A DNA stretch of 64,000 nt from the NCBI GenBank assembly GCA_964016885.1, contig OZ024740.1, positions 425,506,001 to 425,570,000 on the forward strand. Reading direction: 5' to 3'. Both the position numbers and the translations under genes were made by a program. Positions 52,516 through 53,086 of this stretch are shown piece by piece. A model generated the notes under the pieces. The model was not told the origin of the DNA and searched no databases. It saw only the letters and a program-made list of their open reading frames with translations. The stretch comes from Eledone cirrhosa (lineage: Eukaryota). Every line of letters starts with the position of its first letter. Positions within the stretch are counted from its first letter, which is position 1.

Positions 52516-53086
52516 GCTTTGCCATATTCAAAATAATGAAGGGTTCATTCTACTGACATGGCTTTAAAAATGAGGTTTGTTTGCATAATTGCAGATGAAT
52601 CGAATATTATTATTAATATTCGAAAAACTCAGATTACATTTATGGTATTCAGCCATGTAGAGCGAAAATTTCTTTTTTATTATTTTGGATATGGCAAAGC
52701 CGGCCATTGATCGCTCGTATATAGGAAACAGACTGGCCAGTCTGCTGATCAGCCAGATTTATATCTGGCTGATCAGTGGATCTGCTAGTATGCAGATCTG
52801 ACTGATAAGCCTGGCTACTAGTATACAAATCAGGCCGATCAGTCACTGTATATTTTAGAAAATATCATATTTTCATTAGCTCTGACAGTTGGCAGGTGAA
52901 CAGTGAACTGTACTGATGAAGGGTAATACCCGGAAACATTAGTGTCTGCAGTTCTGTTTACATGCCAACACAAGAGCAAGAATGAAGAGTTCATTCTACT
53001 GACATGGCTTTATAAATGAGGCTTGTTTGCATAATTGCAAATGAATCGAATGTTATTAATATTCGAAAAACTCAGATTACATTTAT
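52516..53086 (+). mobile_element. Candidate non-LTR retrozyme or Penelope pLTR derivative: 446-nt monomer plus partial second copy (family B)
   Basis: Direct repeat 52535-52643 vs 52981-53086. Internal hammerhead and stacked hairpins. 5' inverted fragment 52516-52537 matches 52679-52700. Ends in (TA)n. Confidence 0.7.
52905..52954 (+). ncRNA. Type I hammerhead ribozyme motif
   Basis: Stem I GAACTGTA/TGCAGTTC (8 bp, extendable), CTGATGA 52913-52919, stem II (A)GGG-TAATA-CCC(G), GAAA 52933-52936, stem III ACA-TTAG-TGT. GUC site with predicted cleavage after 52946. The first stem II pair is A-G. Confidence 0.82.

Follow-up and report, generated by a model that had tools for sequence, protein, structure and literature searches.

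The stretch of 555 non-coding bases at positions 52532 to 53086 (forward strand) of the window, by which we mean the whole 64,000-nucleotide stretch of Eledone cirrhosa DNA that was analysed, is a 1.26-unit copy of a dispersed repeat family with a hammerhead ribozyme motif. On balance we favour, with confidence only somewhat above even, the reading that this hammerhead repeat was inserted by the borrowed reverse transcriptase and endonuclease of Penelope-like elements (PLEs), copying a probably circular RNA monomer of about 438 nt. The element class and its PLE link have already been described, and the family is a new member.

Unit positions are counted from the first base after the hammerhead cut, so that position 1 is 52947. 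The copy starts at unit position 32, runs once round the unit and stops at 143. The terminal redundancy at a spacing of about 446 nt, on which the original prediction was built, is present: the upstream segment (52532 to 52643) is identical in 103 of 112 aligned columns to the downstream segment (52978 to 53086), which terminates at the main fixed 3' end, the inferred start of reverse transcription. Their offset shrinks from 446 at the start to 443 at the end, one TTA being missing from the 3' copy. A one-sided loss of this TTA from 3' copies, seen in 7 of 24 pairs, was rejected, as it does not reach significance when all segments are taken (20 of 185 terminal versus 5 of 86 internal; p = 0.21, comparing untailed with internal copies and omitting "other" lengths). 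The upstream segment is followed by the "tail" (unit positions 144 to about 183; 52644 to 52683), an optional 3' extension that elsewhere terminates about half of the arms. A palindrome-rich block of about three 33-nt subrepeats (52729 to 52845) holds the four hairpins of the copy, all located as claimed: a palindrome at 52729-52744, a 14-bp stem at 52745-52776, a 7-bp stem at 52779-52798 and an imperfect stem at 52799-52845. Two of them are private to this copy. Of 95 segments of at least 430 nt, this copy is the only one with the 16-nt palindrome and the only one with the 14-bp stem, and the 7-bp stem was counted 54 times; the family unit is about 437 to 439 nt, and 32 of the 39 copies measured have a period of 434 to 440. 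Neither the set of four hairpins nor the 446-nt length is therefore a property of the family.

The monomer folds at -164.8 kcal/mol (z = -10.4), a value equalled by none of 100 shuffles. No stop-to-stop frame of at least 80 aa lies inside the element, the sole overlapping frame extending into the adjoining TA repeat, in agreement with the claim that there is no credible ORF. The copy is bordered at its 5' side by a 20-nt inverted stub (52516 to 52535, reverse strand), a minimal head-to-head arm copied from about 52681-52700, whose junction type is also present at a second locus (L015). At the 3' junction lies a (TA)55 microsatellite (53087 to 53196, no strand assigned), the preferred target of the family. 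The copy, which diverges by 5.1% from the majority of its own subfamily, is a decayed, 5'-truncated dead end. Since it carries a single hammerhead it is unable to release a monomer, and the proposed RT-PCR for a 446-nt circle is consequently the wrong test at this locus.

The type I hammerhead spans 52905 to 52954 on the forward strand and is composed of an 8-bp stem I (52905-52912 with 52947-52954), the core CUGAUGA...GAAA (CTGATGA at 52913, GAAA at 52933), a 4-bp stem II (52921-52931) and a 3-bp stem III with a UUAG loop, with the cut after GUC between 52946 and 52947. The general type I pattern (core CUGANGA...GAAA...UH, three stems, stem I open) is complete. An extended stem I of 8 + 7 + 6 bp (52889 to 52968, forward strand) encloses the ribozyme, with 96% of cells paired across 20 copies, and the core is intact in 150 of 180 family passes. 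Across the window nothing reached an Rfam gathering score, and within 52300-53300 no hammerhead family came up even with E values of up to 10 allowed; the assignment therefore rests on manual anatomy together with family conservation, and the hammerhead lies where it was first proposed. Rfam microRNA-model matches were rejected as lying far under their gathering scores. At the base of stem II, position 10.1-11.1 is mismatched, being A.A in 169 of 180 family passes and A.G in the copy at 52532-53086, in place of the expected pair, which is usually G-C. A U.U variant at this position is known, with low activity (PMC7229834). Covariation within the hammerhead does not exceed that of shuffles, with one double change (111 of 500 shuffles; 20 aligned copies), the common changes being wobble-compatible. 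The next hairpin shows a clear double change at positions 40/44, where the eight commonest types listed include 170 A-U and 64 G-C. In the predicted minimum-energy fold the core is base-paired to the stem III strand, and reaching the active fold takes 10.9 kcal/mol in a model that leaves tertiary contacts aside; we infer that the ribozyme may be slow or gated.

A search of the genome (3.0 Gb in 1,796 contigs) with exact patterns found 1,354 hammerhead cores and 3,779 3' motifs, both lower bounds, and no match to the reversed controls. We mapped 158 non-redundant loci, left after the removal of 12 duplicates from 170 family loci. They were drawn from the 30 best matches, from loci in which two motifs are spaced by one unit, and from the first 100 3'-motif matches listed for one contig (C1), of which most were taken. 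The copies fall into three subfamilies with medians 4.2 to 4.6% from their majorities. A hammerhead variant with a 4-nt loop II, found at L282, L284 and others, is probably a fourth subfamily. In the copies, the end of the unit passes into its start without a break, and the non-coding unit within the range of about 150 to 450 nt, carrying one type I hammerhead, fits a non-LTR retrozyme (for which LTR, PBS and PPT are not required), so the description as a retrozyme-like, ORF-less unit is upheld. The longer tandems invoked as a self-cleaving source did not materialise: the longest copy has about 1.87 units, no adjacent pairs that would form arrays occur among the 50 loci whose two stem III motifs are spaced by one unit, and a pattern requiring about 2 units gave a single, atypical match. 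Two consecutive complete hammerheads, which the 2026 preprint (10.64898/2026.07.22.740005) takes as the sign of an active retrozyme, are nonetheless found in the family, in segments other than 52532-53086; both cores are intact in 26 of 37 such segments, which could thus release a monomer. With 52460-53090 as query, family matches were found in run contigs of unrecorded type, numbering 8,838, 9,810 and 125 in three runs of one organism, and a second organism's run gave one 238-nt contig, less than 90% alike; these matches speak for family presence only, and nothing on expression or circles follows from them.

The insertions carry the marks of PLEs. In a 3'-anchored sample of 120 segments, counting only those that reach position 120, 55 end at 142-148 and 51 at 159-188, with 7 ending earlier and 7 running on, so that the fixed 3' ends lie 143 and about 180 nt past the cleavage site. 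The 5' ends are variable, the copies being 5'-truncated. The expectation of copies starting at different permutation points thus holds for the 5' ends and fails for the 3' ends, which are fixed at two sites. A TA run adjoins 176 of the 222 terminal segments. Among 46 head-to-head pairs, 40 join one tailed and one untailed arm, 6 have neither arm tailed and none has both; in several loci (L019, L088) neither arm is contained within the other, indicating that both were copied from RNA. The copy at 52532-53086 matches this pattern, with its end at 143 running into (TA)55, its 5' end at 32 and its 20-nt inverted stub. The family as a whole displays the 5' truncation, partial tandems, inverted arms and microsatellite targets of non-autonomous PLEs. 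Such marks, including the one-sided tail and the inverted arms, are summarised in PMC8557442 and have been explained by two internal start sites (PMC11167929).

A SINE-like repeat of about 185 nt is found at unit position 109, in the TTA run of one hairpin, at many loci (L093, L137, L149 and L216:8232-8417 among them); the duplications differ in length, and the site is likely an insertion hot spot. Another copy flanks the element at 52297-52480 of the window and presumably is similar to octopod SINEs. A recurring upstream sequence at position 109 was considered as a partner and rejected, since it is the 3' end of this SINE-like repeat.

What template was copied can be read from copies longer than one unit. 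In 46 of the 48 insertions that could be called from four non-CpG columns, both halves are of one subfamily (expectation 24.25). Polymorphic columns agree between halves in 611 of 745 cases versus 52% across loci, the halves differ by 7.6% versus 9.2% across loci, and rare variants are shared 5 times as often as in the control. Of 89 columns tested, none tells upstream and downstream copies apart once correction is applied (best p 0.006), and indels at the cut junction amount to 0.2% versus 1.5% over the unit. A linear 1.9-unit master breeding true would let its halves drift apart, and no such drift is seen; the shared subfamily and the seamless junction together indicate that the monomer was the replicating unit, and this monomer was likely circular. 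The proposal that the 1.2-mer arose by reverse transcription round a small RNA circle therefore stands as far as the joint evolution of the halves and the seamless wrap go, and the circle itself is probable. Separately primed head-to-head arms also belong to the same subfamily, in 20 of 20 cases, so that subfamily agreement points to a common source rather than to a closed circle.

The 5' ends add information on cleavage. They were taken from the 119 3'-anchored segments that remained once segments shorter than 45 nt and segments with an end at the SINE site had been dropped. Of the 73 segments reaching the cut, 15 stop within -5 to +10 of it where 5.6 are expected (Poisson p = 0.0008, for a cut-site window chosen after the data had been seen), and structured neighbouring stretches (positions 11-20 and 41-60) are also raised in 5' ends. 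The excess is a hint of real cleavage. The other 58 of these 73 cDNAs pass the cut site, and 12 of the 119 are longer than one unit. On our reading, most of the templates were continuous, and a smaller share were linear and cleaved.

The same element and enzyme could have worked with no covalent circle, on a linear cleaved monomer or on two RNAs of one source, the enzyme jumping from a 5' end to a 3' end, within one molecule or between two. We think this unlikely. Such jumping accounts for the shared subfamily of the halves, the 20 of 20 agreement of separately primed arms, the 5'-end excess at the cut site and the lack of copies of two units or more. It is at odds with the cDNAs that read through the cut site and with a junction poorer in indels than the rest of the unit, as template jumps usually leave scars.

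Quite improbable, in our judgement, are linear uncleaved transcripts of a few master loci of 1.85 units (repeat, short spacer, repeat, with an internal promoter), in which the hammerhead would be a nearly silent relic and gene conversion would keep the repeats alike. The longest copies do stop at -600 to -651, and the predicted block of the ribozyme would suit this reading, as would the unprocessed RNA that is the main substrate in PMC11167929 and the 8 of 9 Xenopus retrozyme dimers left uncleaved in 10.64898/2026.07.22.740005. The same alleles in both halves across the three subfamilies and the lack of any position-specific column would, however, demand repeated and complete conversion, and 5' ends are in excess at the cut site. 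Several long copies, moreover, end in fold-backs within the palindromic block, which explains the length cap without a promoter. A hard cap at -650 was accordingly rejected as a promoter sign, with fold-backs explaining several cases and few longer copies expected.

The weakest alternative, that the sequence is simply the terminal repeat (pseudo-LTR) of an autonomous PLE and the copies its truncated 3' ends, we regard as very improbable and largely refuted: every insertion mark is of PLE type and a protein-to-DNA search found a PLE protein match near 7 of the 158 loci, but the ORF pieces at these loci come either from the interior of an element or from different families that have ends of their own. 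In 81 segments the redundancy is 50 nt or longer and leads back into the unit itself, the upstream flanks have nothing in common except the SINE-like end and fold-backs, and the unit is the terminal repeat in none of 40 GIY-YIG loci (2 of them the same place) and none of 30 loci of a further PLE family. Copies lying directly behind a Penelope ORF, the arrangement that the original prediction had named as fatal to it, were looked for, and none of the 158 loci is the terminal repeat of an ORF or lies directly behind an RT-GIY-YIG ORF. The prediction had also set retrozyme and Penelope-derived element against each other as alternatives; the two are not exclusive (10.64898/2026.07.22.740005).

The genome does contain RT + GIY-YIG ORFs, as insertion by a borrowed PLE enzyme would need. 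We scored 150 of 10,596 GIY-YIG candidates, and RVT_1 was found in 4 of 4 scanned long frames and GIY-YIG in 3 of 4. Their cysteine motif before GIY-YIG is like that of the Neptune/Nematis type in PMC8557442. Long open RT + GIY-YIG frames, stop to stop, are L113:2275-5562 (1,096 aa), L111:3809-6622 (938 aa) and L112:2488-5019 (844 aa), the first belonging to a family that is young, as its 40 scored copies are 97-98% alike or more. The GIY-YIG loci, the PLE family adjoining three insertions and this 1,096-aa family were rejected as partners because they have other ends; the terminal-repeat comparison with the unit covered the GIY-YIG loci and the loci of the further PLE family. The search, which sampled a small part of the candidates, found no autonomous element with the same unit among the sampled GIY-YIG and PLE loci, and a relaxed hammerhead pattern retrieved only decayed copies, the loop variant and an unrelated mini-family. 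Family arms run straight into ORF fragments from the interior of two different PLE families at L211:1449, L215:1475-1483, L212:2025-2077 and L213:7590-7605, in two cases head-to-head with little or no gap; these are either mixed or nested insertions.

Other repeats were noted alongside the family. The window is rich in TA/CA microsatellites and satellites, with satellite arrays at 1-4591, 11618-35437 and 58508-62414 (46 bp x 100, 24 kb of AT-rich 30/56/86-bp repeats, and 61 bp x 64). Three further hammerhead-like motifs of other repeat families lie within 1.2 kb, at 53522 (reverse), 54082 (reverse) and 54231 (forward); the latter two form a head-to-head pair, and their family is also found twice at L121, 511 nt apart. 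Long inverted repeats beside TA runs (53259-53755, 53823-54489 and 55177-55438) are probably more head-to-head insertions of PLE type. A second ORF-less hammerhead mini-family (L288:1340-1775; period 316 nt, 772 matches with at most one mismatch) also has partial tandems, inverted arms and two recurring 3' ends; in sequence it is unlike the main family, and 24 of its loci gave no PLE match. A 228-aa frame at 49388-50074 (reverse strand) resembles what we take to be a LINE reverse-transcriptase fragment.

Insertion from a PLE-copied circular monomer, the reading we favour, would run as follows. Transcripts of a two-hammerhead locus would be cut twice and then ligated, likely by RtcB, for which this has been shown in vitro with other retrozymes; the slow or gated ribozyme predicted above would prevent the circle from reopening. 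A TA run would be nicked by the PLE enzyme, which would start copying at an internal point of the RNA, 143 or about 180 nt past the cut site, go back through the junction and halt at varying distances. More than one turn would produce terminal redundancy, about 1.45 turns or more would create a new two-hammerhead source, and some templates, likely linear cleaved RNA, would give copies ending at the cut site. Against a circle, an endless template should yield a few copies of two units or more, and none is seen; the predicted 10.9 kcal/mol gap to the active fold, with the usual G-C missing at the base of stem II, is a second objection. In addition, hammerhead cleavage is dispensable for insertion of the PLE PAc in vitro (PMC11167929). 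Given the missing copies of at least two units, the arm agreement of 20 of 20, the dispensable cleavage and the 8 of 9 uncut frog dimers, we hold the circle to be only a little better than an even proposition. We advance more tentatively, and with less than even confidence, a fossil record of Penelope-type reverse transcription round a ribozyme-closed circle, in which one enzyme complex would prime both strands of the TA target from two starts about 37 nt apart, one per strand, on single-source RNA, the stem III strand would block its own hammerhead and so preserve the circle as template, and a minority of cleaved linear RNAs would end at the cut.

The value of the family is as test material for the regeneration of PLE partial tandems and for retrozyme movement via circles. 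A circle model for PLE tandems has been put forward (PMC4209133), and the circle route of PLE tandems and animal retrozymes is left as a hypothesis in PMC4209133, PMC7229834 and 10.64898/2026.07.22.740005. With thousands of copies and three subfamilies, the template can be read from allele sharing, from end distributions at the cleavage site and from start-site use per strand. If the fossil-record reading is true, the family would give direct genomic support to the 2014 circle model of pseudo-LTR formation, and the model could be tested on thousands of copies and several independent mini-families within one genome. A literature search found no paper on the family or on allele sharing within insertions; as most subscription papers and repeat databases lay outside that search, this is no proof of novelty.

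Among known systems, the metazoan non-LTR retrozymes of Cervera and de la Pena 2020 (PMC7229834) are like the family in that their units lack an ORF, measure a few hundred bases and bear one type I hammerhead each, with low GC, high self-pairing and thousands of copies, the present unit being at the upper end of their size range. The mussel hammerhead motif, in units of 350-390 bp, likewise lacks the usual loop 1-loop 2 letters, and the axolotl HHR_Amex2 shares the mismatch at the base of stem II. Coral retrozymes, in contrast, reach 62-mers, whereas the family has about 1.9 units at most and no arrays. Blocking of the core by self-pairing, predicted for the family, is reported in that paper only for some mussel circles, and RNA circles are shown there in coral, mussel and axolotl. 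Li, Clavereau and Pollet 2026 (10.64898/2026.07.22.740005) reach the same conclusion, that an ORF-less hammerhead repeat depends on the PLEs of its genome, and many of the retrozyme families described there are mostly monomers. Their preprint argues from co-occurrence and pLTR similarity in vertebrates; for the family, where a similar pLTR was not found, the link is drawn from insertion anatomy and allele sharing inside insertions, neither argument being met in the available part of the preprint.

The Chlamys non-autonomous elements, e.g., MRC1 (PMC8557442), are ORF-less PLE passengers with pLTRs and head-to-tail copies, like the family; they differ in usually resembling an autonomous family at the 3' end and in belonging to a clade without canonical hammerheads. 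Endonuclease-bearing PLEs, such as PAc, possess the ORF that the family lacks and show the same partial tandems and inverted arms with the tail at one end only (PMC11167929, PMC8557442). For PAc in vitro, strand and start site are unlinked (PMC11167929), whereas one site per arm was used in 40 of 46 pairs of the family. Poseidon PAc (PMC11167929; PMC8557442) and the family nevertheless have in common two fixed 3' ends, 30-40 nt apart and downstream of the hammerhead, together with AT-rich targets and 5' truncation.
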